This document shows positions 8,718 to 32,433 of a stretch of 64,000 nucleotides of DNA, one piece after another. Numbering within the stretch: position 1 is the stretch's first letter; the number at the start of each line of letters is the position of its first letter. The notes under the pieces are model-generated. The model searched no databases and had not been told where the DNA came from. It worked only from the letters and a program-made list of their open reading frames with translations. The position numbers and the translations under genes were made by a program. The DNA is from an uncultured Chromatiales bacterium (lineage in GTDB: Bacteria > Pseudomonadota > Gammaproteobacteria > SZUA-140): positions 119,962 to 183,961 of the forward strand of contig CAZOOF010000001.1 of NCBI GenBank assembly GCA_964581365.1, written 5' to 3'.

Positions 8718-10451
8718 ATGCCTGAAAAGTTCGCTATTCAAGTCAACGGCCTGACCAAAATCTATCCGCCGGATCTGCGCGCGGTGGATGGTCTGGACCT
8801 GGAAGTCAAAAACGGCGAGATCATGGCGCTGCTGGGACCCAACGGGGCCGGCAAGTCGACCACGATCCGCGTCCTGTCCACCCTCAGCGGCTTTGATTCC
8901 GGACGCGCCCTCGTCGGCGGGATCGACGTCGACACCGATCCCGAGGGGGTCCGGCGCACCATCGGCGTAGTGGCGCAGAAAACCGGTGTGGACTATTTCC
9001 TCACCGGGCGCGAGAACATGACCCTGCAGGGCCAGATGTATCGGATGAAGAAGGCCGACATCCGCGCCCGCATCGAGGAACTCGCCAAGTATTTCGAACT
9101 CGAGCAGAGCCTCGACAAGACCGTGGCCTCCTACTCGGGAGGCATGGCGCGCAAGCTCGACATCGCCAGCGCGCTGATTCATCGCCCCCGCATCCTGTAT
9201 CTGGATGAGCCAACGCTCGGGCTGGACATCCGCAGCCGCAAGATCCTGTGGCGCCACATCGAGGAACTCAACCGCAATTTCGGCCTCACCATTCTGCTGA
9301 CCACGCATTACCTGGAAGAAGCCGACAAGCTCGCTCATCGCGTAGCCATCATCAATGCCGGCAAGATCCGCATCATCGGCACGCCGGACGAGCTGAAGAA
9401 CGGCATCCACGGTGATTCGGTCGTGCTCACCTTCGAGACGGCAGGCACCGCCGAGCGCGCCTACGCCGAGCGACTGCAGCAGACGGGTCTGTCGCGTGAC
9501 GCGGTATGGGAAGGAAACAACCTCCATCTGTACGTGGACAACGGCGCTGCCAGCATCCCGCAGATCATTGAACTCGCCGGCCCGGCCAATGTTCACGTCA
9601 AGAGCCTGTCCTACGCCCGCCCCACGCTTGATGACGTCTTCCTCAAGTACACCGGTGCCAGCATGCAGGAAACCAAGGAAGAAGAAGGCGAGCAATGGTG
9701 GACGCAGTGGGCAGGCAAGGGCGGCGGCCGCGGCGACTGGAAGAAGATGGCCGCGAAATGGGGCTATGTGGAGTCCGAGGACGGCGAAGGCGAATGGCAG
9801 GGCAATGAGTGGGTGGATAAAGACGGCAACCCTCGCGCACCAGCCGGCACCCCGGGCGATTCGGCGCAATCATCTGCCAGCGCACCCGCATCATCGCCAG
9901 AGATGAACGAGGACGCCGGGACTGCCTGGCAGGGCAACGAATGGGTCGACGCCGAAGGCCGGCCGCGCGATGCACAGGCCGCTGGCGCATGGAAGGGCAA
10001 TCAGTGGGTCGACGAACACGGTAAACCGCGCAAGCCGGACGAACCGTCCGCATCCGTAGCAGCGAGCGGCGGAGCTAGCGCCTCCGGCGATCAGCAGCCG
10101 GAATGGCAGGGTAATCGCTGGGTAGACAAACAAGGTCACCAGATCGGCGACTGGGGCAACGCGCCCGACTGGAAGGGCAATGATTGGGTGGACGAAGACG
10201 GCAAGCCGCGCAGCGACTGGAACACATCTGCCGATTCCGCCCCTGCGGCCCCTTCCCCGGCCGATTCTTCGGACTCTGCCAGCGCGCAAAGCGGTGAAGG
10301 CCGCAGCGAATGGCAAGGCAATCGCTGGGTAGACGCCGAAGGTCACCAGGTCGGCGACTGGGGGAATGCGCCCGACTGGAAAGGCAACGAGTGGGTGGAC
10401 GAAGAAGGCAAGCCGCGCGGCGACTGGAGCCGCAAGAACGAGCGATCCTGA
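8718..10451 (+). CDS. ABC exporter ATP-binding subunit (DrrA-like) with a long Trp-repeat C-terminal tail
   Basis: Walker A GPNGAGKST, signature YSGGM, Walker B LYLDEPT, H-loop TTHY, PTLDDVFL end of the DrrA fold, then ~260 extra residues. ATG 8718 preferred over 8448. Confidence 0.9.
   Translation: MPEKFAIQVNGLTKIYPPDLRAVDGLDLEVKNGEIMALLGPNGAGKSTTIRVLSTLSGFDSGRALVGGIDVDTDPEGVRRTIGVVAQKTGVDYFLTGRENMTLQGQMYRMKKADIRARIEELAKYFELEQSLDKTVASYSGGMARKLDIASALIHRPRILYLDEPTLGLDIRSRKILWRHIEELNRNFGLTILLTTHYLEEADKLAHRVAIINAGKIRIIGTPDELKNGIHGDSVVLTFETAGTAERAYAERLQQTGLSRDAVWEGNNLHLYVDNGAASIPQIIELAGPANVHVKSLSYARPTLDDVFLKYTGASMQETKEEEGEQWWTQWAGKGGGRGDWKKMAAKWGYVESEDGEGEWQGNEWVDKDGNPRAPAGTPGDSAQSSASAPASSPEMNEDAGTAWQGNEWVDAEGRPRDAQAAGAWKGNQWVDEHGKPRKPDEPSASVAASGGASASGDQQPEWQGNRWVDKQGHQIGDWGNAPDWKGNDWVDEDGKPRSDWNTSADSAPAAPSPADSSDSASAQSGEGRSEWQGNRWVDAEGHQVGDWGNAPDWKGNEWVDEEGKPRGDWSRKNERS
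9795..10428 (+). repeat. Seven in-frame W[QK]GNxWVDxxG peptide repeats with a higher-order duplication (~10101-10220 vs ~10308-10428)
   Basis: WQGNEWVDKDG, WQGNEWVDAEG, WKGNQWVDEHG, WQGNRWVDKQG, WKGNDWVDEDG, WQGNRWVDAEG, WKGNEWVDEEG, separated by S/A/P-rich linkers. Confidence 0.95.
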
Positions 10452-10493
10452 CCACCGCCTGCGCCACACGATCGAACGGGAAACAGAATAATC

Positions 10494-11243
10494 ATGATTG
10501 CGGATACCCTGCATCTGTTCAATAAGTACATGATCATCACGCTGCGGATGCCGCTGTGGAGTCTCTTCACGCTCATCCAGCCGCTGATCTGGCTGCTGAT
10601 ATTCGGGCAACTCTTCGGTCGCTTCGTGCAGGCCGAGAACTACATGGACTTCATGGTGCCCGGCATTCTCATCATGACGGTGCTGTTCGGCTCCTCGTGG
10701 TCTGGCGTGAGTCTGCTGCGGGAAATTTCCGCAGGCACGGTTGACCGGATGCTGGTATCGCCGGTATCGCGCGTGGCGATCGTCCTCAGCCGCGTACTCC
10801 ACTCCGCGGTACAGGTGCTCGCCCAGGCGCTGGTCATCCTGGTGGTCGCCTGGCTGATCATGGATTCCAGCATTACCAAGAACATCGCCTACCTCGCCCT
10901 CGGCATGCTGGTCGTATTCCTGCTTGGTGTCGGGTTCGCCGCTATTTCCAACGGCTTCGCCATCACGCTGCAGCGCGAGGAACCGCTGGTGATGATCGGC
11001 AATCTCATGACCCTGCCGCTGATGTTCTTCTCTTCGGCGCTGGTGCCAAAGCAGTTCATGCCGACCTGGATCGAGTACGTATCCCTGATCAACCCCATCA
11101 CTTACGCGGTGGAATCGGTCCGCGCGGTGCTGGTGGGTCCTCCCGACTTCGGACTCTATTTCAAGGGACTGGCGGTGATGCTGGTGTTCGCGGGCGTCAC
11201 GCTCGCCTGGGCCGTAACGGCATTCAACGCTCTGAGAGACTGA
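10494..11243 (+). CDS. ABC-2 type exporter permease (DrrB-like)
   Basis: About 6 TM segments; QPLIWLLIFG, FMVPG, FFSSALVP, NPITYAVE. Confidence 0.9.
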   Translation: MIADTLHLFNKYMIITLRMPLWSLFTLIQPLIWLLIFGQLFGRFVQAENYMDFMVPGILIMTVLFGSSWSGVSLLREISAGTVDRMLVSPVSRVAIVLSRVLHSAVQVLAQALVILVVAWLIMDSSITKNIAYLALGMLVVFLLGVGFAAISNGFAITLQREEPLVMIGNLMTLPLMFFSSALVPKQFMPTWIEYVSLINPITYAVESVRAVLVGPPDFGLYFKGLAVMLVFAGVTLAWAVTAFNALRD

Positions 11244-11353: not shown

Positions 11354-13879
11354 CTAGAAGTTGAGGGTCAGCCCCGTGGTCACCATCAGTCGACGGTAAT
11401 CACTCAGCGAAGAACTCTGCAGACCTTCGATGATGTCCTCGGCGCCGAGAATGAATCCTACCGGCAGATTGGAGCTGTTGAGCGTGTAGGAAGCCGTGGC
11501 GAACAAGCCGACGTTCTCGCGGAAACGCCAGCGCACACCGGTAGCCAGACTGTGACGCGTGTTACGCCGGTGTCTGGTGAACTGAGAAAATGAATCCGGA
11601 TTGATGTAGTCGAGCAGGCTCAGGCCGTAATTGGCGTTGAACGCGCCCCACGCAGTACGGTAATCCATCCCCAACGACAGACTGTGCATGGTATAGGCAT
11701 AGTCGTTGCCGATCGGCAGTTTGTTATCGTTGATCACATACTGGTACCCCATGCGCAGCTGACTGGCAGGGGTCAGCGCTTGGGCGACAGCAAGCCCGGC
11801 AGCCGCAGTGCGCGCGCTGAAAAACGGACTGCTCTCACCGTCGTAATCACTCAAGGAAAGCGTCGCTGTAATGCTGCTCGGCATCCAGTCGCCCCGGAAC
11901 GGGTGCAGCACTGACGGCAGTGTCATGCGGGTGAACCCTTCGGCGAACAGGGTGTTCATACGGCCGACGCGGCTCTCGGTCAGTAAGCCTTCGCTGCTGC
12001 GGTGAGTAAATCCGCCGAGCAGATTGAAGCGGCCTCGTGTCAGACCGGCCGACAGGGTTGCTGTTGTGTGAAGATAGTCGAACTGTCCCCGGTGGTAAGT
12101 CGAGTAGGTCGGCGCGAACAGCAGACGCCAGCGGATCCCGCCTTCCGTCTTGTACTGGTAGGCCAGGTTCAGCGACAGATCGGAACGAAGGTCCTCGACC
12201 CGGCGCTGATCGCCGAGATTGATGTTGTCGTCCCATGCCATGAGATAGCTGGCATTGACTGACAGACCACGCATCCGGCGACGCGCGCTATCCATCGCGC
12301 GCCGCGCCATCTCGGCAACGTGGGGCGGGGGGTTGGCCTGGAGGATCTTGGCATATTCCGAAATCGCGTCCTCTTCGCGATTCAGCCGCTCGTAGCTCGC
12401 CGCCAGATTGAGCCGCGCGCCAACATGAGTCGGGACGATGCGGATCACTTCCTGGTAGGCATCGACGGCACGCAGGATCTGCTCTTCCTGCGCGTAGATC
12501 AAACCGAGATAGAAGTGCGCCAGCTCATTGTCGGGGTCGGCAGCGAGTATCTCCTCGAACTGCTGACCAGCTTCGCGGAATCGCCCTTCGACGTACATCT
12601 GCTTGGCCACCACCAGCTGCAGATTGCCAAGCGCGCGCTCGCGGGTCGGCGCGTCAGCGTCCAGTTCGAGCACGGCGCCATACTCGGCGGTCGCCTCGGC
12701 GAAACGGCCCAGATTGTCGTATATGGAGGCCAGGGCAAAGCGAATGCGCCAGTCGTCCGGATCGATTCTTCTGATCTCCTCGAACGACTCCGCGGCGGCC
12801 GCCTCATCCCCATGCTGCAGGTGCAGGAGACCCAGCTCGCGCCATGCTTCGGGATCGTCCGGCGTATCGCGCACACGTTCCTGCTGACGCTCTATACGGG
12901 CCCGCAGCCGCTCTTCAGCGACCTTCCTGCCGGCCTCGGTAGAGCCGAGGCGCCGCAGGATGCTCTGCAGACGGGCGGCGAGCGCCTCCCCGGGACGCAG
13001 GAGAGCAACCGCTTCTACCTGCTCATAGGCATCGTGCAGACTGCCCTGCTCGAGCGCCAGTTCCGCCAGCCGGAGACGCGAAGCTGCGTCGTCGGGATAG
13101 GCTTCGACGATACGGCGATATGTTCCGAGTTCGGCCTCGACATCCGCCATGACACGATACACGGCCGCAACCCCGATGAGGGCATCCCGATCATTCGGCT
13201 CGAGGTCCAGCGCCCGCTGGTAGGTTGCCAGCGCTTCGTGCAGATTACCCTGCTCCCTGAGCAGACGTGCCTCGATCACCAGCAGACGCACCTGCGCCCG
13301 TCTGCCCGCCGCGCTCTCGGGGGCAAGTTCCACCGCCTGTGCCAGGCGTTCGACAGCGCGCCCGAACTCCCCCCGCATCTCATGGACACTGGCCAGATTG
13401 ATGTAGGCGTTGATGTAGTCGGGGTCGATCCCGATCACCCGCTCGAATGCCGCCAGCGCCTCGTCCGATTCACCCCGGAGCATCTGCGCCACGCCCACGC
13501 TGTAGATGATCAAGGCATTGTCGGGATATTCGCGCGCCAGCTGGGTGAAGATCTCCAGAGCCTGATCCAGCTCCTGCCGTTCCGCATGACGCGTGGCGAT
13601 CAGATACCGCATGCTGCGGCTGGCCTCCCGGCCGACGGCACTATCCTCGCCGGCGATATCAATCGCGATGCGATACTGGGCAATCGCATCATCTGTCCTG
13701 CCGGCAGCAGAGTATGCTTCGGCAAGCCGGAGGCGAAGGTTCGCATCCTCGCGATTCGCATCGATCGCCTGCTCGAGCATGATCGTCCGATCATCCGCGG
13801 CAGCCCAGGGCGAGAATGCCGGCGTCGCCACCAGGAGCGATGCCGCGGTCATCAACAGGATGCGGTGCAGTTGCGCCAT
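11354..13879 (-). CDS. TPR-repeat protein with C-terminal outer-membrane beta-barrel (Slam/DUF560-like)
   Basis: Signal peptide; ~500 aa of TPRs (e.g. AHFYLGLIYAQ...AVDAYQEVIRIVP); last ~305 aa beta-rich, starting AWDDNIN and ending GLTLNF. Confidence 0.78.
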   Translation of the reverse strand: MAQLHRILLMTAASLLVATPAFSPWAAADDRTIMLEQAIDANREDANLRLRLAEAYSAAGRTDDAIAQYRIAIDIAGEDSAVGREASRSMRYLIATRHAERQELDQALEIFTQLAREYPDNALIIYSVGVAQMLRGESDEALAAFERVIGIDPDYINAYINLASVHEMRGEFGRAVERLAQAVELAPESAAGRRAQVRLLVIEARLLREQGNLHEALATYQRALDLEPNDRDALIGVAAVYRVMADVEAELGTYRRIVEAYPDDAASRLRLAELALEQGSLHDAYEQVEAVALLRPGEALAARLQSILRRLGSTEAGRKVAEERLRARIERQQERVRDTPDDPEAWRELGLLHLQHGDEAAAAESFEEIRRIDPDDWRIRFALASIYDNLGRFAEATAEYGAVLELDADAPTRERALGNLQLVVAKQMYVEGRFREAGQQFEEILAADPDNELAHFYLGLIYAQEEQILRAVDAYQEVIRIVPTHVGARLNLAASYERLNREEDAISEYAKILQANPPPHVAEMARRAMDSARRRMRGLSVNASYLMAWDDNINLGDQRRVEDLRSDLSLNLAYQYKTEGGIRWRLLFAPTYSTYHRGQFDYLHTTATLSAGLTRGRFNLLGGFTHRSSEGLLTESRVGRMNTLFAEGFTRMTLPSVLHPFRGDWMPSSITATLSLSDYDGESSPFFSARTAAAGLAVAQALTPASQLRMGYQYVINDNKLPIGNDYAYTMHSLSLGMDYRTAWGAFNANYGLSLLDYINPDSFSQFTRHRRNTRHSLATGVRWRFRENVGLFATASYTLNSSNLPVGFILGAEDIIEGLQSSSLSDYRRLMVTTGLTLNF

Positions 13880-13880: not shown

Positions 13881-14822
13881 TCAGAAGTACATGTTCACGC
13901 GAATGGCCATGCGCCAGCCGTCGAAGCCGAGCTCCATCGGACGGTAGGTCACGTCACTGTACGAACGCACCTCCGCAAGGTACGTCAGGCGCTGCTCGGC
14001 ATTGAGCTGCGCTGGCGTCCGGAAATTCAGATTGTCCTCGGCCTGAATGTCGGTGCTCAGGCTGGCATTGCCGAGTTCGAATCGGCGCAGGCTGAGCGTG
14101 TAACCGAGATCAGCGCCTATCGACAACCAGTCGAGGAAAAAGTACTCGCCGCCAAGCCCGAGCTGAGCCATGAGCAACCCTGTAGCCTGCGACTCCATGA
14201 CGATGATGCGCTTGAAGGTCTCGGTACCGGTATCGAATCCAAAGACGAGATCTTCCTTGTAATCGATATCGAAGATCTCGTGCAGGGCCAGGCGGCCGTG
14301 CAGCCGGAACTTCTTGGCTTCCGACAGCAGGGTCCGCTGCCAGCCGAGGAAGTACTGAAAATACGAGATCCGCCCGGAGCGCTCGTATCCGACCGGCGTC
14401 ATCACTCCCTGGAAGGGCATCTCGGTACGAACCGAAGATGTCGAACCGCCCTCCCAGACACTGGCGCCGAAAAACAGAGTGTTCCGCTCGTCGAGCCTGA
14501 GGCCGATCTCGAGCCCGCCTTCGGTCCCGCTCCTCATCTCCGGCAGCGGATTGTCGACCACGAAATCGAAGTCCTGACCGGCATCGGCCTGATCGAAGAT
14601 CAGTCGACCGCGCCCCGGCAGCGGCGCCCTGAACTCTCCCTTGTTGAGAGCGGTGAGCCGCGGACTGTGCACGCCGAGTACCGGTGATACGCTCCAGAGC
14701 CGATCATCCGCGCTGACCGTGCCCCCGGCGGCGGACATCAGCAGAAATACAGAGCATCCCACCGCCACACCACGGCGGGCTCCCCGTTGTTCTTCACCCC
14801 GTCGCGGGTGATCGGCTGTCAT
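13881..14822 (-). CDS. Hypothetical outer-membrane beta-barrel protein
   Basis: Signal-peptide-like N-terminus, amphipathic strands (QLGLGGEYF, LSIGADLGY), terminal Phe (RVNMYF); 1 bp from the next gene. Confidence 0.7.
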   Translation of the reverse strand: MTADHPRRGEEQRGARRGVAVGCSVFLLMSAAGGTVSADDRLWSVSPVLGVHSPRLTALNKGEFRAPLPGRGRLIFDQADAGQDFDFVVDNPLPEMRSGTEGGLEIGLRLDERNTLFFGASVWEGGSTSSVRTEMPFQGVMTPVGYERSGRISYFQYFLGWQRTLLSEAKKFRLHGRLALHEIFDIDYKEDLVFGFDTGTETFKRIIVMESQATGLLMAQLGLGGEYFFLDWLSIGADLGYTLSLRRFELGNASLSTDIQAEDNLNFRTPAQLNAEQRLTYLAEVRSYSDVTYRPMELGFDGWRMAIRVNMYF

Positions 14823-14833: not shown

Positions 14834-16381
14834 TCAGAAGGTATAGCGGAATTCCGCAAAGACGCGATCATTGCCGCTGAAATTGCCGAAAAACTGTGCG
14901 CTCTGCTCGATCGTATTGCCCCCCGTGATCGGCGAGGTTCCGCCACCGATACCCAGCTGCGAGGCCTCGCCGAAGAACAGATCGAAGCCGGCAGCGATCT
15001 GAAAATGATCGGTTACATTCATGATGAGCTTGGGCTTGAGGTAAAGCTCTTCCATGTTGATCAGAGCAATGGCCAAGAGCTGGAGCACCATCGATTGCTG
15101 CGGCATCGGCTTGCGCAGGAACAGGGTGAGGGAAGTATCCAGCCGGTCCTGAATCATGCGCTCGTCATGCCCGAGGATTACCCACTGCGTTATCGCCGGC
15201 GCGAAATCGATACCCCAGCGCTGGAACTCGTACCCGATGCCCCAGCGGACATGACGCCGCTGCAGCACGCCCTGGCTGTCGAGGAAACCGTCGCCATCGA
15301 TGTCGCTGTCATTGCGCAGTCCGAAGTACTTGTCGGGCACATAGGCCGCCTCGAGTTTCAGCACCCCTTCACCAAGCGGTCGCACCGCCGTGGCTCCGTA
15401 GATGTTGATCCGGGTATAGGCGGGAAAGAACGTCGGTTCGAGCGCCGTTTCGATCATCGCCGAGCGGAACAGTACCGGGAAGTCGTCCCAGGTATAAAAC
15501 CAGCTGAAGGACACATCCGTTTCCAGCAGACGCGTCGAATACCGCAGCCCGATCTCCGAATTGCGGAAATTGCGGCCCGGATAGCGTGTCACCTCATTGC
15601 CGTCAGGATCGGTGATGCGCTGCAGCAGCTCCCACTCCGAACCTGGCGGCGCCGGTTCATGAAAGCGCAGATCCGGTATCCACAGGAACTGCAGATCGCT
15701 GCCATTGTCAGTGTACCAGTCGAGCTTGACGGTCCATAAGGGGATCCGGTAATCGAGCAGATCCGGGAGGATCAGCTCGCGGAAATCCATCGGATTGATC
15801 TCGTCGGTAATGCGAACGCCTTCAAGCACGCCCCAGACGACGAACTGCCTGCCGACGCGCAGATCGAAGCGATCAAAGTACATATCGAGATACAGCTCAC
15901 GGACCGCCATTACCGGCGAATCCTTTTCCTCGGCGAGGTTGTCGATGAATACCAGAGGCTGATCGGAATCACGCGCGAAGCGCGCGCTGATCGTCCGGTA
16001 GTCGAACAGTTCGTAGGCGAGATCGTGATAAGCCCAGGCGGAGAACCCGAGCCGCATCCCTGGCGTGAACCCCCAGGTTCCGTCCACGTTGATGATGTTG
16101 CGAATCTTGGTGATGGAACGCGGTTCGCTGAAACGGAACGCGGTCTCGTTCTTGAGGTAGCCGCCGATATCCAGCCCTTCGAGCCAGGAAAAGCGCGACT
16201 TCTCTGCCGCCGCTATCTCGGCAGAGAAGTCCGGACTATCGGAAGGAATCGTCGCGCGACCATCGGCAGCGATGGCCGGAGTCAGGAAAGCGGGGGCAAT
16301 GGCCGTCAGTGCAAGGGCAGAAAATGAAAGCGGTCGAATCGCCGCGGAACGTATCAGACGGGCTCCTTGCATTTCGCGCAC
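14834..16381 (-). CDS. Outer-membrane porin-like protein (DUF1302-like)
   Basis: Signal peptide; RELYLD...DLRVGRQFVVWG...D.INP.D pattern; ends VFAEFRYTF. Confidence 0.75.
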   Translation of the reverse strand: MREMQGARLIRSAAIRPLSFSALALTAIAPAFLTPAIAADGRATIPSDSPDFSAEIAAAEKSRFSWLEGLDIGGYLKNETAFRFSEPRSITKIRNIINVDGTWGFTPGMRLGFSAWAYHDLAYELFDYRTISARFARDSDQPLVFIDNLAEEKDSPVMAVRELYLDMYFDRFDLRVGRQFVVWGVLEGVRITDEINPMDFRELILPDLLDYRIPLWTVKLDWYTDNGSDLQFLWIPDLRFHEPAPPGSEWELLQRITDPDGNEVTRYPGRNFRNSEIGLRYSTRLLETDVSFSWFYTWDDFPVLFRSAMIETALEPTFFPAYTRINIYGATAVRPLGEGVLKLEAAYVPDKYFGLRNDSDIDGDGFLDSQGVLQRRHVRWGIGYEFQRWGIDFAPAITQWVILGHDERMIQDRLDTSLTLFLRKPMPQQSMVLQLLAIALINMEELYLKPKLIMNVTDHFQIAAGFDLFFGEASQLGIGGGTSPITGGNTIEQSAQFFGNFSGNDRVFAEFRYTF

Positions 16382-16779
16382 AGGATAACATGATCCTCTC
16401 CCGGTGCAGCGATTCCCAAGGTAGCAACCGCGCCCGCCGCCATACCATTCCCGCAGGACACACAGGTCATGTCGCGATTGAGCACGATCCGCTCCCAGGC
16501 AAGCACGCTGGAGAAGGCATCAGCCGACTTCCGCCCTGCGTCCGCGACCTGCCCGGATGAGCTGCGCGGCGCCTCATTCATGAACGCCTGCTCCAGCACG
16601 TTGCGGATCAGAATCGATACGGGGATACCGAGCTCATCGGCCCGGGCGATGACCTTGGCACGCAACTCGCGCGAGACCCGGGCTCCCAGGTAATCTTCCT
16701 TGCGCTTCATTGCTTCCCTGCGCGCCTTTTCACCCACCGATCTGGCCTGCTCCCGCATGCGCTTGGCGAAATCCTGCAT
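16354..16779 (-). CDS. Small ribbon-helix-helix (CopG-like) protein with C-terminal CxxC...CxxC zinc finger
   Basis: YLGARVSRELRAKVIARADELGIPVSILIRNVL (beta-alpha-alpha pattern); CVSC and CAKC; GGAGG before ATG 16779 (ATG 16710 is an alternative). Confidence 0.7.
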   Translation of the reverse strand: MQDFAKRMREQARSVGEKARREAMKRKEDYLGARVSRELRAKVIARADELGIPVSILIRNVLEQAFMNEAPRSSSGQVADAGRKSADAFSSVLAWERIVLNRDMTCVSCGNGMAAGAVATLGIAAPGEDHVILCAKCKEPV

Positions 16780-17721: not shown

Positions 17722-17843
17722 CGCCCCCCGGCGGCGCCCTCTCCTGCCTCCGGCTGCGATGCCGAAATCCTTTATGGCCTGATCCCCGTGATCAAATCAG
17801 GCTTCGGCCAGCAGCGACCGAAGCCCGTGAATCCCTGCCCGCA

Positions 17844-24031: not shown

Positions 24032-24083
24032 TGCGTTCTCCCGCTTACGGCAGTTTGTCGGAGCATGCTCATGTCGCGATCAG

Positions 24084-24872
24084 TCAGAACCAGCCTCGCT
24101 CGGCGACCGCGAACGGTCCGGCGGCATCGGTGAGCAGCAGCCCCAGCGCGACCGTCAGCGCGATCGCTGCCTTCACGTAATCGCCGGGGATGGCGCGGAA
24201 AGTCACCATCGAATGCAGCTGACCCTGATATCCCTTGGACAGCATTGCCTTGTATACCCGCTCGGTGCGCTCGAAGCTGTGGACGAGCAGGGTTCCCACA
24301 AAATGTCCGAACACGCGCAGCGTCTTGCGATCGGCCTGGGCAACGAAGCCGCGCGATCGCATCGAGGTATACATCCGCCGCATCTCGTCGAGAAATACGA
24401 AGGTATAGCGGTAGGTAAACAGCAGCATCTGCACGACCAGAGGCGGGCATTTGAGGTGCTGCAAGGCCAGCATCGACACATCGAAGCGGCTGGAACCGAA
24501 AATGGCGAAGCTGATCAGCACCACGGACAGCGCCTTGATGAAAATCAGCGAGGCGATGCGGAGTCCCTCCCAGGCAAAGGGCAGGCCGATGATCGTGAAC
24601 GCCGCCTCGCCCGGATAGGTAACTGGCATGACGACGAAAAACGGCAGCAGAAATACCACGATGAATGCCAGCCCATGCGAGACGAAATGCATCGGCAATG
24701 CCGCCGAAAACAGGATGATGGCGGCAATACCCAGAGCGAACAGCGCCACTGGCAGCGTCTTAAGCAGCGCAACGCATACGATGAGGAACAGGAGCGTCGC
24801 GATCTTGAACCGGGGATCCCAGCGCTGCAGCGGGGAAGCGACATGGGCAAAACGATCGATGTCGAGTGCCAT
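24084..24872 (-). CDS. ECF transporter T component (NikQ/CbiQ)
   Basis: DPRFK, FTYRY, SRGF, ERTERVYKAMLSKGY. Confidence 0.9.
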   Translation of the reverse strand: MALDIDRFAHVASPLQRWDPRFKIATLLFLIVCVALLKTLPVALFALGIAAIILFSAALPMHFVSHGLAFIVVFLLPFFVVMPVTYPGEAAFTIIGLPFAWEGLRIASLIFIKALSVVLISFAIFGSSRFDVSMLALQHLKCPPLVVQMLLFTYRYTFVFLDEMRRMYTSMRSRGFVAQADRKTLRVFGHFVGTLLVHSFERTERVYKAMLSKGYQGQLHSMVTFRAIPGDYVKAAIALTVALGLLLTDAAGPFAVAERGWF

Positions 24873-24887
24873 TTCGATCTCTGGCCG

Positions 24888-25505
24888 TCAGACCGACGGC
24901 GCATTGCGCCCAGCAAGCATTTCCGGTTTGACGCGACCGAGGAACTCCGCGGCGGCGCCAACCACGGCCCCTTCGATCAACATGATTGGAAAGTGAGCCA
25001 GCAGCACGGCAACCGCCACTCCGGCAAATGCCTCGCCGGTGGTAAGCAGCGCCAATGCCAGCACCAAACCGGAACTGATGGTGGCCGTGGCCCCGGCTAT
25101 GGCACCAAAGACGAAGTTGCGCCGGGCAAACGTGAACCGATGGCGCAGCTGCCATACCATGTACGCCACCAGCGCGCCGCCCCCCAGCATTACCGAGTTG
25201 ACGCCGATCACCGTCACCCCGCCATGGCCGAATATGATGGCCTGCAGGATGATACCGAGCATGATTGCGGGGAACGCTCGCCACCCCAGCACCACAGCCA
25301 CCAGGCCATTGAGGATGAGATGAACGCTGGTGGGACCGATCGGCACCTTGATCAGCGAAGCGACGAAGAAGACCGAAGTGATCACCGAAATCTTCGGGAT
25401 CTCCTCCATGTCCAGCTTGCGCATGGTCGCGGCGGCAATCAGTGCGGTACCGGCAAAACCGGCAGCGAGCACGGGTCCCTGAAGAATGCCCTCGGAAATA
25501 TGCAT
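24888..25505 (-). CDS. ECF Ni/Co S component (NikM/CbiM)
   Basis: Metal-binding N-terminus MHISEG; TSVH, LQAIIFGHGG. Confidence 0.92.
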   Translation of the reverse strand: MHISEGILQGPVLAAGFAGTALIAAATMRKLDMEEIPKISVITSVFFVASLIKVPIGPTSVHLILNGLVAVVLGWRAFPAIMLGIILQAIIFGHGGVTVIGVNSVMLGGGALVAYMVWQLRHRFTFARRNFVFGAIAGATATISSGLVLALALLTTGEAFAGVAVAVLLAHFPIMLIEGAVVGAAAEFLGRVKPEMLAGRNAPSV

Positions 25506-25554
25506 GGTGCGAAGTAACCCGTTGCCCTGGTTAGAGCTTATCGGTCGGTGTCGC

Positions 25555-26163
25555 TCAGCCTGAAGTACCCGGCCCAGCTCCGGCGGGGTTGCTGCTTTCC
25601 TTGCGAGCTTTCAGGTAGAAAAAGATACCGAGCAGTCCGACGATGAAGCCGATCCCCCCGACGATGTCGCTGAAGCTCTTCTGCTCCTTCAGCTCCGAAA
25701 TGCCGCGCATGACCGGTGTCAGAGACTCGCCCACGGCCTGCTGAACGATCGCCCGGAGCTCCGCCTGATTCACCGCAGCGCTGGCGGCAGCCGGCGAAGA
25801 CGCGGCTGCTTCCCCCGCACCACTGTCCGAAGCCGTTCCGGCACTCTGCAGATCCGCAGCGGGGATCGTATATTCGGTCCGATGCCCCATTCCCGCGTAC
25901 AGTGAAATCCGGAGATCGGTGATCTGCGGGACATCGAAGGTGAAGATCCCTTCGGCGTCCGCCTTGCCCTGGACCAGTTTGGTGCCATCGGGCGCGAATA
26001 CCTGGATGGTGGCCTCCTTGGCCTTCTTGCCGTCGGCGAAATACCCTTCGACCACGACCCGGTTGCCCTCGACATTGGCGAACATGTTCACCTTGTGGGC
26101 GTGGACGACACTGACAGCACACAGCAACGCAAGGAAGAATGCAACGGATGTCGGGGTGCGCAT
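25555..26163 (-). CDS. NikL/CbiL-like accessory component
   Basis: Start moved to ATG 26163; signal peptide cleaved to mature HKVNMFA; G.GH motif; C-terminal TM anchor. Confidence 0.75.
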   Translation of the reverse strand: MRTPTSVAFFLALLCAVSVVHAHKVNMFANVEGNRVVVEGYFADGKKAKEATIQVFAPDGTKLVQGKADAEGIFTFDVPQITDLRISLYAGMGHRTEYTIPAADLQSAGTASDSGAGEAAASSPAAASAAVNQAELRAIVQQAVGESLTPVMRGISELKEQKSFSDIVGGIGFIVGLLGIFFYLKARKESSNPAGAGPGTSG

Positions 26164-26340: not shown

Positions 26341-26372
26341 AAAAAAAAGCGCCCATAAAGGGCGCTTTTTCG
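26341..26372 (-). terminator. Intrinsic terminator after moaE (bidirectional form)
   Basis: AAAAAGCGCCC-ATAAA-GGGCGCTTTTT, with a U8 tract on the minus strand. Confidence 0.85.
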
Positions 26373-26395
26373 TACTGACCGGCAAACCCGGATCG

Positions 26396-26869
26396 TCATG
26401 CGGTTTTCAGCGCAACCCGCTTGGCCACACCCGGATCCTCCGAGTTCTTCTCGACCCAGTGCTTCTTGCCCTCACGGGTAAGTTCGCACTTCCAGAACGG
26501 CGCGCTTTCCTTGAGGTAGTTGATGATGTAGCGGCATGCATCGAAGGAATCCTTGCGATGCGCCGACCATACCGCGACCAGCACGATCGGGTCAGTGGGG
26601 ACCATCTCGCCGACACGATGCACCACCAGGCAATCCATGACATCCCAGTTGTCCATCGCTTCCTGGCAGACGCGCTCGATGTGCCGCTCGGTCATGCCGG
26701 GATAGTAGTCCAGGTTCATCGCCTTGACGTTCTGGCCATCATTGAAGTCGCGCATGGTGCCGACGAAGCTGACCACACCACCGTGCTTGCCCGGAGGCAG
26801 CGCCTCGCGCTCGTACTTCACGACTTCCTGATACGGATCCAGCACATCCTTCGTAATGAAGACTTTCAT
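26396..26869 (-). CDS. moaE: Molybdopterin synthase catalytic subunit
   Basis: FVGTMRD, YPGM, HRVG, SAHR, LKESAPFWK. Confidence 0.94.
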   Translation of the reverse strand: MKVFITKDVLDPYQEVVKYEREALPPGKHGGVVSFVGTMRDFNDGQNVKAMNLDYYPGMTERHIERVCQEAMDNWDVMDCLVVHRVGEMVPTDPIVLVAVWSAHRKDSFDACRYIINYLKESAPFWKCELTREGKKHWVEKNSEDPGVAKRVALKTA

Positions 26870-26870
26870 C

Positions 26871-27104
26871 TCAACCTCCCGTCACCGGCGGGAAGAACGC
26901 CACCTCGTCGCCGGGCTTCAGTTCATGACTGGAATCGGTGTACTCCATGTTCACCGCGACCAGGATGGTGTCGGGAATAGGATCCTTGGAGATCTCCCGC
27001 CACAGGTCGGCGACCGTCAGCCGTTCCTTGTCGACGCTCACCTGCTGTTCGGAGCGTCCCATGCGATCCCTCAGACTCGCGAAAAAGCGTACCTTGATAT
27101 CCAT
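26871..27104 (-). CDS. moaD: Molybdopterin synthase sulfur carrier subunit
   Basis: FFASLRD, VAVN, DEVAFFPPVTGG C-terminus. Confidence 0.94.
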   Translation of the reverse strand: MDIKVRFFASLRDRMGRSEQQVSVDKERLTVADLWREISKDPIPDTILVAVNMEYTDSSHELKPGDEVAFFPPVTGG

Positions 27105-27140
27105 AGCCAAACCCCTGCTCGATGTCCCGATGAGTGCGCG

Positions 27141-27632
27141 TCAGGCCGTTGCCGATCTGCGCCAGTGTCCCGACTTGCCGCCCGATTTCTCCAGCAAGCC
27201 GACCTCGGAGATGACCATGCCGCGGTCCACCGCCTTGCACATGTCGTAAATGGTGAGCAGCGCGACCTGCACCGCCGTCAGTGTTTCCATCTCCACGCCG
27301 GTCTGGCCGTTGCAGCGAACCGTCGCCTTGCAATAGACCGCATTCTTTTCCGGCTCCGGCACCAGCTCGATATCGACCGAGGTGATCATGATCGGATGGC
27401 ACAGCGGCACGAGGTCGGGGGTCTTCTTGGCGCCCATGATGCCCGCCACACGGGCGATGCCAAGCACATCTCCCTTCTTGTGCGAACCCTCCATGATCTT
27501 CTTCAGGGTCGCAGCCTCCATATAGATTCGTCCCTCGGCGACGCCTTCACGGGTGGTCGAATCCTTGGCGCCGACGTCGACCATGTAGGCCTCGCCGCTG
27601 GCGTTGAAATGGGTCAGTTCGTTGTAGCTCAT
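27141..27632 (-). CDS. moaC: Cyclic pyranopterin monophosphate synthase
   Basis: LTHF...MVDV, KGDVL, PLCHP, TGVEME, IYDMCKA, KSGGKSG. Confidence 0.95.
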
Positions 27633-27702
27633 CCGATTTGCCTCTCGTATGTCGGAACGCAGGGCCACTTCCCATGGCCCTTATTGCCTTTATCGCTTTG
27701 CC

Positions 27703-28821
27703 TCAACCGCCGATCTGCGTCATGCTCGCGCGCGCCCGGGCGATGTCCGAGACGTTGATTTTCGCGGCCACGCTGGCAGCTCTCTTGGCTTCGAAACCAT
27801 CCTTGTGCTTTTCATCGAACGCCTTGCGGAACAGGGCGACCACATCGTCGTCGGTGCAACCGCGACGCAGCAGATCGCGCAGGAGATAGGGCTGCTCCGA
27901 GTAGAGGCAGTTCATGATGCTGCCATCAGCGGTCACACGGATGCGGGAACAGTTACCGCAGAGGCTGCGCGTGAATGCAGGAATGACTCCAAACTTACCG
28001 GCGTAGCCGGGCACCTGATAGATATGGTGCTCGGTGCGGGTGCCCTGCGCCGGCTCCAGCCCCATCGGCGCGTAATGCCGCTCGATCTGACCGCAGAGGT
28101 CCGCTGCGCTGGCAAAGTGCTGGCCATTCTCCCAGATCTGGTGCGCATCGAAAGGCATGAACTCGATGAAGCGCACCGTGATCGGCTTATCCTTGGTCAG
28201 TTCGCAGAAGTCGAGCAGCTCATCCTCATTGAAGCCGCGCATCAGCACGACGTTGACCTTGACGCGAGGGAAGCCCAGATCCACGGCGAGGTCGATGCTC
28301 TCGAGCACCTTGTCCACCCCGCTGCGGCGGGTGATGGTTTCGAACTTGTCGGCCTTCAGGGTATCGAGGCTGATGTTGACGCCAAACAGGCCGGCATTAC
28401 GCAGCGCCTCGGCATATTTCGGGAACAACAGACCATTGGTGGTCATGTGCACCGCCTTGACCCCCGGTACCTTTACCGTACGCTCCACGATATCGACGAT
28501 GTCGGGCCGCACGGTCGGCTCGCCGCCGGTGTAGCGGACCTTGCGCACACCCATGCGGGCCAGAACCTCCACTACGCGCAGAATCTCGTCGCTGCGCAGC
28601 ACCATATCCTTTTCCTTGAACTGCACACCCTCTTCAGGCATGCAGTAGGTACAGCGCAGATTGCACTGCTCGATGACCGCGATACGGACGTAGTCGAAGG
28701 TGCGACCGTGGCGATCCTGAAGCGGGGGAAGCGGATGGGCGGGGAGATTCTCGTGCTGCGCTGAAACCGGCCTCTCGGCCTGGGTCCCGACGGACTGCTG
28801 ATTCAGCGGGGTATTGAGCAT
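27703..28821 (-). CDS. moaA: GTP 3',8-cyclase (radical SAM)
   Basis: CNLRCTYC, TGGEP, C-terminal CGNC...C cluster, IGG terminus; GAGGAG before ATG 28821. Confidence 0.95.
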   Translation of the reverse strand: MLNTPLNQQSVGTQAERPVSAQHENLPAHPLPPLQDRHGRTFDYVRIAVIEQCNLRCTYCMPEEGVQFKEKDMVLRSDEILRVVEVLARMGVRKVRYTGGEPTVRPDIVDIVERTVKVPGVKAVHMTTNGLLFPKYAEALRNAGLFGVNISLDTLKADKFETITRRSGVDKVLESIDLAVDLGFPRVKVNVVLMRGFNEDELLDFCELTKDKPITVRFIEFMPFDAHQIWENGQHFASAADLCGQIERHYAPMGLEPAQGTRTEHHIYQVPGYAGKFGVIPAFTRSLCGNCSRIRVTADGSIMNCLYSEQPYLLRDLLRRGCTDDDVVALFRKAFDEKHKDGFEAKRAASVAAKINVSDIARARASMTQIGG

Positions 28822-29207
28822 ATTCGTTCTCCTCAAGGGCTTTCTATACATGGAGTACTTCTGGCGGCCCTGCCTGGACTGCGTTGCGCCTGGAGATCGG
28901 CTGGCAACGGCCGGGGGGGTTCCGTCTCCCATCGGCCCGGCGCTGTCCGCGCACCGTAATCGCCATGAGAGGTTATCGCTGCCATCCATGAATACTTGAA
29001 GTCCGGACCAGGACCTCGGTATCGAACCGGCCGAGTCGTCCCTGAGTGACGCGCGATGGTATGCCGGGGCGCCCTGGAGAGCTCAAACCATCGTGGGCCT
29101 GCCTGCCCTGCGCGCAGGGAAATTCCACTAAGAAGCGCCCTGCGCGGCCGTCTCCTCGCCTGAGGATACTTGTGGCCGATACTAGCACAAGCGGCTTAAA
29201 AACTGAA
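28822..29207 (-). promoter_or_regulatory. Candidate sigma70 promoter and ~350-nt structured leader of moaA
   Basis: TTCAGT-N17-TAGTAT with extended TG (29207-29179); several stem-loops between it and the moaA start. Confidence 0.5.
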
Positions 29208-29363
29208 CCGAACACGAGGACTTGAAGCAGTCTCCTTCACATCTCTCTGCAATTGTTAATACAAGAGCGCATCCTTGCCGGAGTCCCCCAATCATCGGAC
29301 AATGCCAGCCATCGGGAGAAATGCGCTCCCAACTAATCGTGTCATCATCCAAAGGGCGCAGAA

Positions 29364-30302
29364 ATGAACAAGGTCACCGACATCCAGGCCGGAAGCTGGG
29401 CCGTCAAACCCGCGCTTCCCAGCGCACGATCCCACTGTCCTACCGCCACTTTCGGCGGTCGGGTCTATGGTCTGGGTGGCGGAGGACCCAACTTCAAGAG
29501 CCTGAACTCGGTCATCATTTACGATCCGCAGACCGATTCCTGGTCACGCGGCGCCGACATGCCGACGCTTCGATCAGGCGCCATCGCGCTTACCGTCGGC
29601 AATGCGATCTACGTCATCGGCGGTGGCTTCAAACAGGAAAACGGCACTTTCCGCTTTCTGCGCACCACGGAAATCTATTATCCGGAAGAGGACCGCTGGG
29701 AGAAAGGACCGGACATGCTCATGCCGCATGACTATCCTGCGGGCATTTATCTCGACAACTATATTTACATCATGGGCGGCCATCATCCGGACGCCACGCT
29801 ATCCGGCCCCAAGACCGACCCGGGATTCGATTTCTGCGAAAGACTGAATCTCGACACAGGCGAGTGGGAACAAATCGCGCCGCTGCCTACGCCGCGTTTC
29901 GCACTGGATGCCGTGATCATGGATGGCCGCATCGTGACGCTCGGCGGCGTTGCCTTCACTCCGGAAGGCTTCAACAACTTCGACCACACGGAAGTGTACG
30001 ATCCGCAGACCGGAACATGGACGCGCGGCGAGCTGACACTGCCCTGGACCGCCGCTGGCGCCGGAGCCTGCACTGCTGGCGGCCGTCCATATGTATTTGG
30101 CGGCTACAGCGGCGACGGCATCAGCGATCACTGTGCCGCCTATGATCCTGCCGCAGACAGATGGCACATTCTGCCGCCGATTCCCCAGCCCCTTGCCGCC
30201 ATGGGGGTTGCCGTGCTCGGAGACTGGATCTATCTCCTGGGCGGGTGGGCTGACGATGGCCGCACCCCCCAGGACTGCTGTTACGCTTATCGGTTCCGCT
30301 GA
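29364..30302 (+). CDS. Kelch-repeat beta-propeller protein (six blades, no signal peptide)
   Basis: Repeated (I/V)Y..GG...Y(D/Y)P....W units. Confidence 0.9.
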   Translation: MNKVTDIQAGSWAVKPALPSARSHCPTATFGGRVYGLGGGGPNFKSLNSVIIYDPQTDSWSRGADMPTLRSGAIALTVGNAIYVIGGGFKQENGTFRFLRTTEIYYPEEDRWEKGPDMLMPHDYPAGIYLDNYIYIMGGHHPDATLSGPKTDPGFDFCERLNLDTGEWEQIAPLPTPRFALDAVIMDGRIVTLGGVAFTPEGFNNFDHTEVYDPQTGTWTRGELTLPWTAAGAGACTAGGRPYVFGGYSGDGISDHCAAYDPAADRWHILPPIPQPLAAMGVAVLGDWIYLLGGWADDGRTPQDCCYAYRFR

Positions 30303-30329
30303 GGAACAAATTTCCGATTCCCCGGCTCC

Positions 30330-31112
30330 ATGGACCAGGAACAGCTGCAGCGCTACAGCCGTCATATCCTGCTGCCCGAGATCGACATCGAGGGGCAGGA
30401 GCGCCTGAGACAGGCCACCGTAATGCTGGTCGGCGCTGGCGGACTCGGATCGCCGGCTGCCATGTACCTGGCGGCCAGCGGCCTGGGACATCTGATCCTC
30501 TGCGACGATGACCGCGTCGACCTTGGCAATCTGCAGCGCCAGATCCTCCACGGCACCGCCGACATCGGCAGACTGAAGACCGACTCCGCGCGCGAGCACC
30601 TGCTGGCGCTGAACCCCGGAGTCCGGGTGACTGCGATCACGAAGCGGATGGAGCCCGAATCGATGCGGCGCGAAGCGGCGCGCGCCGACGTCGTCCTCGA
30701 TGCCTGCGACAATTTCGCCACTCGCTACGCACTCAGCGAAGCCTGCATCGCAACGCAGCGGCCGCTGGTGATGGGAGCGGCGATCCGCTGGCAAGGACAC
30801 GTCGCTCTGTTCGATCATCGCTCACCGGACAGCCCCTGTCTGGCCTGTCTCTATCCACCCACGGGCGAGGAAGAGGAAAACTGCGCTGCGCTGGGGGTGT
30901 TTTCCCCCCTCACCGGGGTCATCGGCAGCCTCATGGCGGCCATCACGCTCAAGCTGCTCCTGGGACTGGGCGATATGCTAGGCGGACGTCTGCAGCGCTT
31001 CGACGCCGCGGATCTGTCCTGGCGGGAATCGCGTCTGAGCAGGGATCCCGGCTGCCCCGTTTGCGCCGCCGCCCCGCCGAGGACAGCGCAATCCGGCTCG
31101 GGTATAATCTGA
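30330..31112 (+). CDS. moeB: MoeB/ThiF family adenylyltransferase
   Basis: RYSRHI, GAGGLG, NLQRQ, DN, CLAC and CPVC zinc pairs. Confidence 0.88.
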   Translation: MDQEQLQRYSRHILLPEIDIEGQERLRQATVMLVGAGGLGSPAAMYLAASGLGHLILCDDDRVDLGNLQRQILHGTADIGRLKTDSAREHLLALNPGVRVTAITKRMEPESMRREAARADVVLDACDNFATRYALSEACIATQRPLVMGAAIRWQGHVALFDHRSPDSPCLACLYPPTGEEEENCAALGVFSPLTGVIGSLMAAITLKLLLGLGDMLGGRLQRFDAADLSWRESRLSRDPGCPVCAAAPPRTAQSGSGII

Positions 31113-31233
31113 AACGCTCCGATGCACGCCCGGAGTCCCAGGAGTTGACCCCGCACGATGCGCAGGCCCGGCCCGCCGCCGGCAATCTCTTTTAAATCCA
31201 ATACTGTTACAAATCCATACAGTTGGAGGTCAC

Positions 31234-32433
31234 ATGAAGGCGAAAGATCGTCGATTGGCGGAATTGCGCAGCTCGATTCCGGAAGTTGCTCCCAGCGAGG
31301 CGGTGCAGCTCACCGCCGCCGGCATTCCTCTGATCGATGTGCGCGACACCGACGAAGTCGCTCAGGGCAGCCCAAGCGGCGCCCATCGCCTGGGCCGCAG
31401 CTTCCTCGAGCTCCGGGTCGAGGATGCGATTCCCGATTTCGATCAGACCGTACTGGTGATGTGCGCCGGCGGCGTCCGCTCCCTTTTCGCCGCCGAGACG
31501 CTGCGCCAGATGGGCTACAAGGACGTGCGTTCGGTGGCGGGAGGCTTCAGCCGCTGGAAGAACGAAGGGCATCCGTTCGAGATTCCCGTGACACTCGACG
31601 CCGAAGCGCGCGAGCGCTATTCGCGCCACCTGCTGATGCCGGACGTCGGCGAGAAAGGTCAGATCCGTCTGCTCGAAAGCAAGGTGCTCCTGATCGGCGC
31701 CGGCGGCCTGGGCTCACCTTCCGCCTTTTATCTCGCCGCGGCAGGCGTAGGCACCATCGGCCTGGTCGATCACGATGTGGTCGATCGCAGCAATCTGCAG
31801 CGCCAGATCCTGCACTCCGAAGAGCGGGTCGGCATGCCCAAGGTCGAATCGGCCAAGATCGCGCTGCAGGCGATCAATCCAAAGATCAACATCAACACCT
31901 ATCAGACGCATCTCGACAGCAGCAACGTCGAAGAGATCTTTGCCGATTACGATGTCATCGTGGACGGCTCCGATAATCTGGCCACGCGTTATCTGGTCAA
32001 CGACGCCTGCGTCAAGATGGGCAAACCCAACGTGCATGCCGCCGTTTACCGCTTCGAAGGCCAGATCACGGTGTTCTGGCCTGCCTACGACAAGCAGCCG
32101 TGCGGCTGCTACCGGTGCATGTTCCCGGAACCGCCACCGCCGGAGTTCGCGCCTTCCTGTGCGGAGGCGGGAGTGCTGGGCGTAATGCCGGGCACGCTTG
32201 GCCTGTTGCAGGCGGTAGAGACGATCAAGATCCTGCTGGGACTGGGCGAACCGCTCGTCGGCCGCATGCTGCACTACGATGCGTTGAGCTCGCGCTTTAC
32301 CGAACTGAAGGTGCGCAAGAACCCGAAGTGCCGCTATTGTGCCGAGGGCGCCGAGTTCCCGGGATACGAAGACTATGCCCAGGTCTGCGCCTCGACACCT
32401 CCGGCTGCGGAACCACGCAAGGCTGCGGGCTGA
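31234..32433 (+). CDS. Rhodanese-MoeB fusion (MoeZ-type adenylyltransferase/sulfurtransferase, rhodanese N-terminal)
   Basis: IDVRD...CAGGVRS rhodanese loop, then RYSRH, GAGGLG, NLQRQ, CYRC, CRYC. Confidence 0.9.
   Translation: MKAKDRRLAELRSSIPEVAPSEAVQLTAAGIPLIDVRDTDEVAQGSPSGAHRLGRSFLELRVEDAIPDFDQTVLVMCAGGVRSLFAAETLRQMGYKDVRSVAGGFSRWKNEGHPFEIPVTLDAEARERYSRHLLMPDVGEKGQIRLLESKVLLIGAGGLGSPSAFYLAAAGVGTIGLVDHDVVDRSNLQRQILHSEERVGMPKVESAKIALQAINPKININTYQTHLDSSNVEEIFADYDVIVDGSDNLATRYLVNDACVKMGKPNVHAAVYRFEGQITVFWPAYDKQPCGCYRCMFPEPPPPEFAPSCAEAGVLGVMPGTLGLLQAVETIKILLGLGEPLVGRMLHYDALSSRFTELKVRKNPKCRYCAEGAEFPGYEDYAQVCASTPPAAEPRKAAG

Follow-up and report, generated by a model that had tools for sequence, protein, structure and literature searches.

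A 24-kb block of probably separate gene units and an apparently orphan molybdopterin pathway in an uncultured Chromatiales bacterium

A block of about 24 kb in the genome of an uncultured Chromatiales bacterium places the genes for molybdopterin synthesis (moaACDE and two MoeB-type genes) beside genes for a nickel importer, a copZA cassette, an ABC exporter and an outer-membrane module, and it raises the question of whether these genes form one system or several. The block takes up positions 8,718 to 32,433 of a 64,000-nt stretch of DNA that was analysed at its full length (contig CAZOOF010000001.1, positions 119,962 to 183,961; hereafter the window). The initial annotation had suggested that the moa, nik and exporter/envelope genes may form one system that makes or handles a metal-dithiolene product, possibly with nickel, for export or for building into the envelope, and had offered a supply of cofactors to enzymes encoded elsewhere as the plainer reading. 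Here, we propose instead that the block consists of at least seven independent, ordinary-looking units, and that its molybdopterin probably has an unrecognised client; we give this reading as a whole a probability of roughly 0.7.

The host genome (G000) has 2.17 Mb in 75 contigs, is rated 94.6% complete, and carries the window on its contig C1. Genes in the block were called by Pfam and NCBIfam scans of candidate open reading frames (ORFs). The family sample comprised 36 genomes (35 in the survey of the 321-aa protein described below), with genera labelled g1, g2 and so on, and synteny was surveyed by tblastn of the window proteins against 40-kb stretches from 20 relatives. The RNA evidence consists of contigs of one metatranscriptome library that match the window with 0 mismatches; parts of the block that no such contig covers were left uninterpreted.

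Transcription and gene order across the block

The units that we distinguish are a DrrAB exporter, an outer-membrane module, a secreted protein, nikR with a phosphatase gene, copZA, nikLMQO, and moaACDE with a divergent kelch-moeB-moeB group, and they would have come to lie side by side through ordinary collinearity within one gammaproteobacterial family. A single RNA-library contig of 2788 nt spans positions 26392-29155, which take in the moaA leader and moaACDE, and it ends in adapter sequence short of nikL. The intrinsic terminator that the initial annotation had placed between moaE and the nik genes is real; it lies on the minus strand at 26341-26370 and was read directly as AAAAAGCGCCC-TTTAT-GGGCGC followed by T8. 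Just past it, nikL has an extended -10 element of its own (TGTGnTAATAT), which is conserved upstream of nikL. Another RNA-library contig, at 17665-18961, covers the gene for the 321-aa protein alone with no bridge to the neighbours, and nikR and the histidine phosphatase gene lie on separate contigs. By the terminator, the nikL promoter and the RNA contigs, the moa genes, the nik genes and the 321-aa gene are transcriptionally separate.

Gene order in the relatives also separates the units. The full order is retained in genera g1 (5 genomes), g2 (3) and g11 (3). The cop/nik cassette is missing at the block site in 6 genomes, four of g4 with moa in view and one each of g6 and g8, where moaE abuts nikR or the phosphatase gene directly; no CopA match was found at the block site in G008, G022 or G011, nor in genera g4, g6 and g8. 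Within the family, the cassette is an indel. In all four g4 and g6 genomes examined (loci L091, L093, L094 and L095), the nikLMQO genes are found outside the block, next to a second NikR that is 39-44% identical. Most of the g4 and g6 genomes with the importer genes outside the block also keep a NikR orthologue adjoining moaE. G011 (g5) has the order hisPhos-nikR-nik-moa-kelch-moeB, and no envelope gene was matched in the ~6.7 kb beside it. In genus g3, the 321-aa gene was seen with the LolA-like gene only.

The envelope genes occur a second time in the host genome. The four-gene core of the module has a paralogue in the same order on contig C46 (397-16996; locus L075) at 47, 52, 34 and 30% identity, with LolA-like, DUF1302, barrel and TPR-barrel genes, the last encoding a protein of 1192 aa; a gene for an FG-GAP repeat protein, an N-acetylglutamate-synthase-like gene (named by its domains) and, ~7 kb away, an MMPL exporter gene follow. 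Neither moa nor nik genes lie beside this copy. The initial annotation had itself named envelope clusters free of moa and nik neighbours as evidence against its proposal, and the C46 paralogue is such a cluster.

The collinearity reaches far beyond the block. In g2 it takes in 3.6 to ~58 kb of the window, and in g4 and g6 3.6 to 31.1 kb, minus the cop/nik cassette and including housekeeping genes to the left of tsaD (7391-8464, minus strand, matched in Pfam/NCBIfam). Because the collinearity runs on into unrelated housekeeping genes, conservation of the block is indistinguishable from general synteny, and this synteny explains the adjacency seen here in a single family, though it extends over six genera. 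Five lines leave the proposal of one nickel-dithiolene system unsupported: the units are separate, nik lies outside the block in two genera, one genus has nik-moa with no envelope gene matched alongside, the envelope module has a paralogue apart from moa and nik, and the synteny runs on into housekeeping genes.

Molybdopterin synthesis, its leader and its Kelch neighbour

The set of MoaA, MoaC, MoaD, MoaE and MoeB that leads from GTP to molybdopterin is complete in the host genome. On the minus strand lie moaA (27703-28821; TIGR02666, 349 bits), which starts at the ATG at 28821 and not at the top of a 428-aa ORF, moaC (27141-27668; NF006870, 239 bits), moaD (26871-27104; PF02597, 64 bits, with a Gly-Gly end) and moaE (26396-26869; PF02391, 117 bits). 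The plus strand carries a MoeB/ThiF-type E1 (30330-31112; NF004281, 281 bits against a cut-off of 266) and a rhodanese-MoeB (31234-32433; NF006444, 612 bits against a cut-off of 449). Judged by family membership, these proteins would make molybdopterin from GTP, first by MoaA and MoaC and then by MoaD-MoaE with MoeB, a chemistry that is well established. A tblastn search of the host genome found no second moa set, and the set in the block is the sole one.

To our knowledge, genes for synthesis of the molybdenum cofactor (Moco) and Moco enzymes almost always co-occur. In the host genome, PF00384 matched only NuoG and a QrcB/ActB-like protein, and PF00174, PF02738, PF02730 and PF03473 gave 0 matches; the same four families gave 0 matches in five genomes that are 95-100% complete (G023, G018, G012, G014 and G003), one of them in 8 contigs. 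Beyond NuoG and the ActB1/QrcB-like subunit, no member of the DMSOR, SUOX, XO, AOR or MOSC enzyme families was found in the host genome. Nor does it have MogA or a full-length MoeA: its sole PF00994 match is a 334-aa protein with MoeA_N and MoCF domains and no MoeA_C. The MobA model TIGR02665 reached at most 25 bits, and the ModA model TIGR01256 had no match (ModB and ModC were not searched). The gene for the short MoeA-like protein lies on contig C11 (locus L003, 1456-2460) between pyrC and pepA, and all 36 family genomes carry a copy like it in size and score class.

The same absences recur across the family. Read from the match rows, 12 of the 36 genomes lack both a PF00384 match above 200 bits and MogA/full MoeA (hereafter Mo-less). 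They are seven of the eight g1 genomes, three of the four g2 genomes and the single genomes of g6 and g8, the host included. Family genomes that bear molybdenum enzymes carry MogA (~180 aa), MoeA (~415 aa) and the short MoeA form, and MobA exceeds its cut-off in 13 of the 36 genomes, none of them Mo-less. Relatives have mobA, moeA and mogA side by side, and in G001 nirBD-like and nasA-like genes, recognised by ORF size and N-terminal motif only, lie alongside. Because the three genes are contiguous and in G001 stand beside nitrate assimilation genes, they look like an accessory island. ModA was discarded as a marker, being present in only 3 of the 36 genomes, where it does not track molybdenum enzymes. 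One g2 genome, G018, has mogA, moeA and modA (contig C7, locus L098) and no recognised molybdenum enzyme; the neighbours there are unrelated genes for an amino-acid permease, an HD-domain protein and a LysM transglycosylase.

Genomes in this state keep the moa genes. All nine Mo-less genomes examined of the twelve (G005, G002 and G028 were not included) have moaA, moaC and moaE at the block site. By the Nei-Gojobori method against four same-genus Mo-less genomes, dN/dS for MoaA, MoaC and MoaE within the genus is ~0.05-0.11, values that are rough because dS is near saturation (0.8-1.4). MoaA has dN of 0.06-0.08 and dS of 0.77-1.39, MoaC 0.05-0.08 and 0.80-1.14, and MoaE 0.08-0.09 and 0.76-1.35; dN for tsaD, taken as a comparison, is 0.16-0.22, and by dN the moa genes rank among the most conserved of the block. 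It appears that moaACDE are kept under strong purifying selection in the Mo-less genomes.

Orphan molybdopterin synthesis therefore appears, from these genome sequences, to be real genome-wide as far as the assemblies go. The search for moeA, mogA, modA, a second moa set and nickel enzymes that the initial annotation had recommended returned only the short MoeA-like gene on C11. Its statement that the window holds no MoeA, MogA, ModA, molybdoenzyme, hydrogenase or urease is correct and extends to the genome as far as it was searched. What stands of its proposal is the pterin-dithiolene genes without molybdenum loading, genome-wide and in 12 of the 36 family genomes, and, for the host genome, the nickel importer without the usual nickel enzymes; the exported or envelope-built product is not supported. 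Among the literature matches listed, no paper was found that uses the phrase 'no known molybdoenzyme'. A clade that keeps moaACDE and moeB without recognised molybdenum enzymes points to an unrecognised molybdopterin-dependent protein or to a new use of the cofactor.

The moaA leader is a concrete handle on the role of the pterin that can be tested. It is ~350 nt long (28822-29172, minus strand), is preceded by an extended -10 element TGcTAGTAT at 29187-29179, and shares its RNA-library contig with moaACDE. Its boxes GCAAGGGCATGC, CACGTCAAGGAYGRC and TTCAGGGAYG are conserved in 11 genomes of three genera. A GGCAUG box in the leader is complementary to the start-codon region. At gathering thresholds Rfam had no match anywhere in the window, and on the leader it had none at E<=5; the leaders of two relatives matched only chance-level eukaryotic families or the unrelated cis-regulatory Alpha_RBS. 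The leader is therefore, by the lack of any Rfam match, not a Moco riboswitch. RNAalifold gave 11 pairs, only 1 of them with a compensatory change, so that a fold is not established.

The other handle is the Kelch protein encoded beside moaA (29364-30302, plus strand; PF01344, 139 bits). In a survey of 301 genomes of the class, 21 matched at E<=1e-20 (three weak matches were left out), and 16 genomes from nine other families have full-length orthologues of 51-61% identity. In 15 of these 16 loci (L101-L117) moaA lies divergently next to the Kelch gene, the sixteenth being cut by a contig end, and a MoeB-like gene lies downstream of the Kelch gene in 13 of the 16. The divergent Kelch-moaA pairing thus spans ten families of the class, that of the host included, and the kelch-moeB pair that goes with moaA across them can be tested for its bearing on the molybdopterin question. 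Because 13 of the 16 other-family genomes have canonical molybdenum enzymes, the Kelch gene is a general companion of moaA and does not mark the Mo-less state.

The Kelch protein is cytoplasmic, and an AF2 model gives a six-bladed propeller with confidence (pLDDT 93.7). His24, His122, His140, His141, Asp123, Asp152 and Glu159 are invariant. A fold search for a specific structural relative returned only generic six-bladed Kelch domains, among them KEAP1, NS1-BP and the designed SAKe, and none was adopted. A predicted complex with the MoeB-like E1 scored 0.00, which bears neither for nor against binding. Databases name the protein only 'kelch repeat-containing' or 'N-acetylneuraminic acid mutarotase'. 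Among the literature matches listed, the pairing of kelch with moaA is absent, and co-mentions of kelch and moeB concern unrelated topics.

Candidate clients of the pterin and competing explanations

We infer that the client of the molybdopterin is one that escapes current family models. Our favoured candidate, which we nevertheless hold to be doubtful, is the ActB1/QrcB-like subunit of a complex like alternative complex III (ACIII) or Qrc, which would bind the pterin, unlike its counterpart in solved ACIII; in that case the short MoeA-like protein might act as its insertase. The subunit is encoded on contig C24 (locus L002, 1165-3414) as a separate protein, flanked by QrcA- and QrcC-like genes, and the neighbouring genes encode a multihaem cytochrome and an Fe-S subunit. 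Besides NuoG it is the only candidate pterin-binding protein in the host genome. It exceeds the cut-offs for PF04879, PF00384 and PF01568, has a twin-arginine signal, and has an N-terminal CxxCxxxC...C (FS0) motif not shared by the aligned ActB proteins of solved structure. Read from the match rows, 30 of the 36 family genomes and 12 of the 16 other kelch-moa genomes have a protein like it in size and score class, a co-occurrence that is confounded by shared ancestry. The host subunit has Asn-Asp at the position where ArrA has a Cys, which we take to be its molybdenum ligand. MobA was not found in the host genome, which argues against a guanine dinucleotide form. In the PDB, the subunit matches ACIII ActB chains best (147 bits), ArrA scoring slightly lower (138 bits), and passages of the structural literature describe the ActB1 domains of solved ACIII complexes as holding no prosthetic group (PMC5928083).

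These last points weaken the case for the ActB1/QrcB-like subunit as the client, and some others weigh against the reading of the block as a whole. For the host genome alone, a missing molybdenum or nickel enzyme could still be hidden, because the assembly is 94.6% complete and in 75 contigs, and the search for Moco enzymes took in five Pfam families only. The RNA-library contigs reveal neither strand nor ends, nor whether there is a single transcript, and carry-over of DNA into the library could have produced some of them, although their cover is very uneven, which is unlike the pattern expected of genomic DNA carry-over. Finally, the adjacency of moa and envelope genes persists in six genera, and the two may be functionally linked. 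We still favour separate units and an unrecognised client.

A plainer explanation is that the block is a housekeeping cluster feeding ordinary molybdenum and nickel enzymes that were missed through assembly gaps or divergence. Incompleteness of the host genome would allow this; relatives carry the mogA-moeA-mobA island with nitrate reductase or other molybdenum enzymes, urease is found in 17 of the 36 family genomes, and minor nickel or cobalt clients (glyoxalase I, acireductone dioxygenase and others) lie outside the set that was tested. Against it, the absences recur in independent assemblies, 12 of the 36 genomes, the five genomes of 95-100% completeness have 0 matches to the four further Moco-enzyme families, and the island, where present, is readily detected by the same searches. 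The initial annotation had offered supply of cofactors to enzymes encoded elsewhere as its more modest alternative; for the host genome the searches came back empty and did not bear it out, and we consider this explanation unlikely.

It is about equally improbable, in our judgement, that the molybdopterin has a molybdenum-independent job, in which it would be sensed by the moaA leader and passed to a client, possibly with Ni, Cu or W, with the Kelch protein and the short MoeA-like protein replacing MogA and MoeA.

The joint nickel-dithiolene product comes last, and we regard it as very improbable: no molybdenum-loading genes or enzymes, none of the tested nickel clients and no corrin synthesis (a cobalt sink) were detected in the host genome, NikM is single-copy in 33 of the 36 family genomes, moa adjoins envelope genes in six genera, and Ni-bis(dithiolene) wires exist in cable bacteria, according to passages of PMC13534509, but the transcription units are separate, nik is unlinked in g4 and g6 with its own NikR there, G014 (99% complete) keeps the moa and envelope genes but yielded no CbiM-type gene, G011 has nik-moa with no envelope cluster alongside, the envelope module has its paralogue away from moa and nik, the 321-aa secreted protein has one Cys pair and no motif like a metal site, canonical molybdenum enzymes are present in 13 of the 16 other genomes with the kelch-moa module, and the main text of a comparative-genomics paper on cable bacteria names neither molybdopterin nor moaA (PMC11976967).

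The other units and comparison with known systems

The Pfam and NCBIfam scans confirmed every gene that the initial annotation had named in the block; the ORFs at 20262-20630 and 28973-29215 look spurious. The Ni/Co importer is encoded on the minus strand at 23075-26163, with the nikL start placed at 26163, and it is complete, its S component NikM/CbiM, T component CbiQ, ATPase CbiO and accessory NikL all having been matched (NikL NF058648, 180.8 bits against a cut-off of 100; PF01891, 152.9; PF02361, 108.7; TIGR02454, 137; TIGR01166, 214). In every arrangement observed, the gene nikR (19654-20118, minus strand; NF002815, 196 bits against a cut-off of 83) is adjacent or close by, and the histidine phosphatase gene lies 19 nt downstream of it (18991-19635, minus strand; His_Phos_1, PF00300, 186 bits; CobC-like TIGR03162, 140.5 bits, below the cut-off of 162.9). 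Between nikR and the importer, on the plus strand, are copZ (20258-20518) and a copA-type P1B ATPase gene (20741-23050), for which PF00403, PF00122 and PF00702 were matched.

No site like GTATGA-N16-TCATAC, the E. coli-type NikR box, was found upstream of nikL or nikR. A candidate NikR operator at 29059, in the moaA-kelch spacer, was one imperfect match in a search with N14-18 spacing and was dropped. A perfect 11-bp GC-rich hairpin with a T-run lies at 20157-20182 on the minus strand, ~40 nt upstream of the nikR start codon, and the RNA-library contig covering nikR ends at 20181, within this site. Rfam showed no B12 riboswitch in the window. Profile searches of the host genome found no NiFe hydrogenase, urease, nickel superoxide dismutase (Ni-SOD), carbon monoxide dehydrogenase, LarA or CbiC/corrin synthesis; glyoxalase I and acireductone dioxygenase were not searched. 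Across the family, Ni-SOD is present in 1 of the 36 genomes and LarA and CbiC in none. The orphan status of the importer thus appears real as far as the assemblies go, to a lesser degree than that of molybdopterin synthesis.

The DrrAB-type ABC-2 exporter is encoded on the plus strand by an ATPase gene (8718-10451; TIGR01188 drrA, 317.8 bits against a cut-off of 312.45; PF01061, 108 bits) and a permease gene (10494-11243). The C-terminal tail of the ATPase (9660-10448, ~260 aa) has no Pfam match; by eye it holds seven 'WxGNxWVDxxGxPR'-like repeats, W(Q/K)GN-x-WVD-xx-G-x-P(R).

The envelope genes lie on the minus strand. A TPR protein with a C-terminal barrel (11354-13879) matches multiple TPR families, among them PF24575 TPR_Slam at 57.7 bits, and its C-terminal 300 aa have only sub-threshold matches to DUF3187 (20.6 bits) and OmpA_membrane (17.5 bits). 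It is followed by a 313-aa protein, the second barrel of the module (13881-14822), a DUF1302 protein (14834-16381; PF06980, 41 bits against a cut-off of 23.2), a small protein (16354-16779), a LolA_like/DUF1329 protein (16876-17721; PF17131, 127 bits; PF07044, 42 bits) and the 321-aa secreted protein (17844-18809). Six envelope genes had been counted here by the initial annotation, and all six are present, although the product of 16354-16779 looks cytoplasmic by eye. It resembles a ribbon-helix-helix (RHH)/Zn-ribbon protein by eye, with a C-terminal CxxC...CxxC, and shows 36-59% identity in relatives. Three proteins of the module end in Phe, again by eye. Modules of its kind have been proposed to carry envelope material outward; here the inner-membrane partner and the cargo are both putative.

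The 321-aa protein is restricted to the family, being found in 33 of 35 family genomes and in none of 25 other families sampled, and a related-locus search with it returned a single locus. It has a signal peptide, and an alignment of 21 sequences shows that an FDxW motif and a single Cys pair are conserved. It has no Pfam or NCBIfam match, and its AF2 model, all-beta and of mediocre confidence (pLDDT 66.9), gave 0 Foldseek matches against the PDB at E<=0.001. A PEP-CTERM-type link, suggested by ESM Atlas cluster matches at 0.83 only, was set aside as a weak lead.

Of the known systems, the fibres of cable bacteria resemble the block only in the general idea of a nickel-sulfur ligand complex in the envelope. 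Passages of PMC13534509 model the Ni-bis(dithiolene) cofactor as Ni-ethenetetrathiolate oligomers, state no direct homology with molybdopterin and assign no genes to the cofactor, and nothing here ties the pterin to nickel or to the envelope. The envelope module is closer to the DUF1302/DUF1329/BNR/RND cluster, which Price et al., in passages of their preprint, proposed to export a cell-wall component (bioRxiv 10.1101/072470). It shares the adjacent DUF1302 and DUF1329/LolA-like genes, and the C46 copy, with its MMPL/RND-type exporter gene ~7 kb away, fits the published DUF1302/DUF1329/RND association. The window cluster differs in its extra barrel, TPR-barrel protein, RHH-like protein, family-specific secreted protein and the ABC-2 exporter next door, and no BNR-repeat protein or RND/MMPL gene was found among its genes. 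Set against Slam/BcsC/PgaA-type proteins, the TPR-barrel protein has TPR-family matches, TPR_Slam among them, and only sub-threshold matches to named barrel families.

The importer has the NikL, NikM(CbiM), NikQ(CbiQ) and NikO(CbiO) genes in one operon with NikR nearby, as in the NikKLMQO/CbiMNQO type of energy-coupling factor (ECF) Ni/Co importers, the classification of which is reportedly that of Rodionov et al. in 2006. It differs in that copZA parts NikR from the operon, no E. coli-type NikR box was found, and the genome has none of the tested clients. The ActB1/QrcB-like subunit is most like ACIII ActB and Qrc QrcB (PDB 6lod, 6f0k and 8k9e), which are its best sequence matches, and shares the multihaem cytochrome and Fe-S neighbours; unlike them, its B1-like part is separate and retains the N-terminal four-Cys motif. 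Finally, compared with canonical Moco biosynthesis in E. coli (moaABCDE, moeAB, mogA, mobAB and modABC), the pathway lacks MogA/MoaB, full-length MoeA, MobA, ModA, the Moco riboswitch and any recognised Moco enzyme, whereas MoaA, MoaC, MoaD with its Gly-Gly end, MoaE and MoeB are intact and conserved and moaACDE form one operon; a Kelch partner gene and an unclassified leader of ~350 nt are additions to the canonical set.

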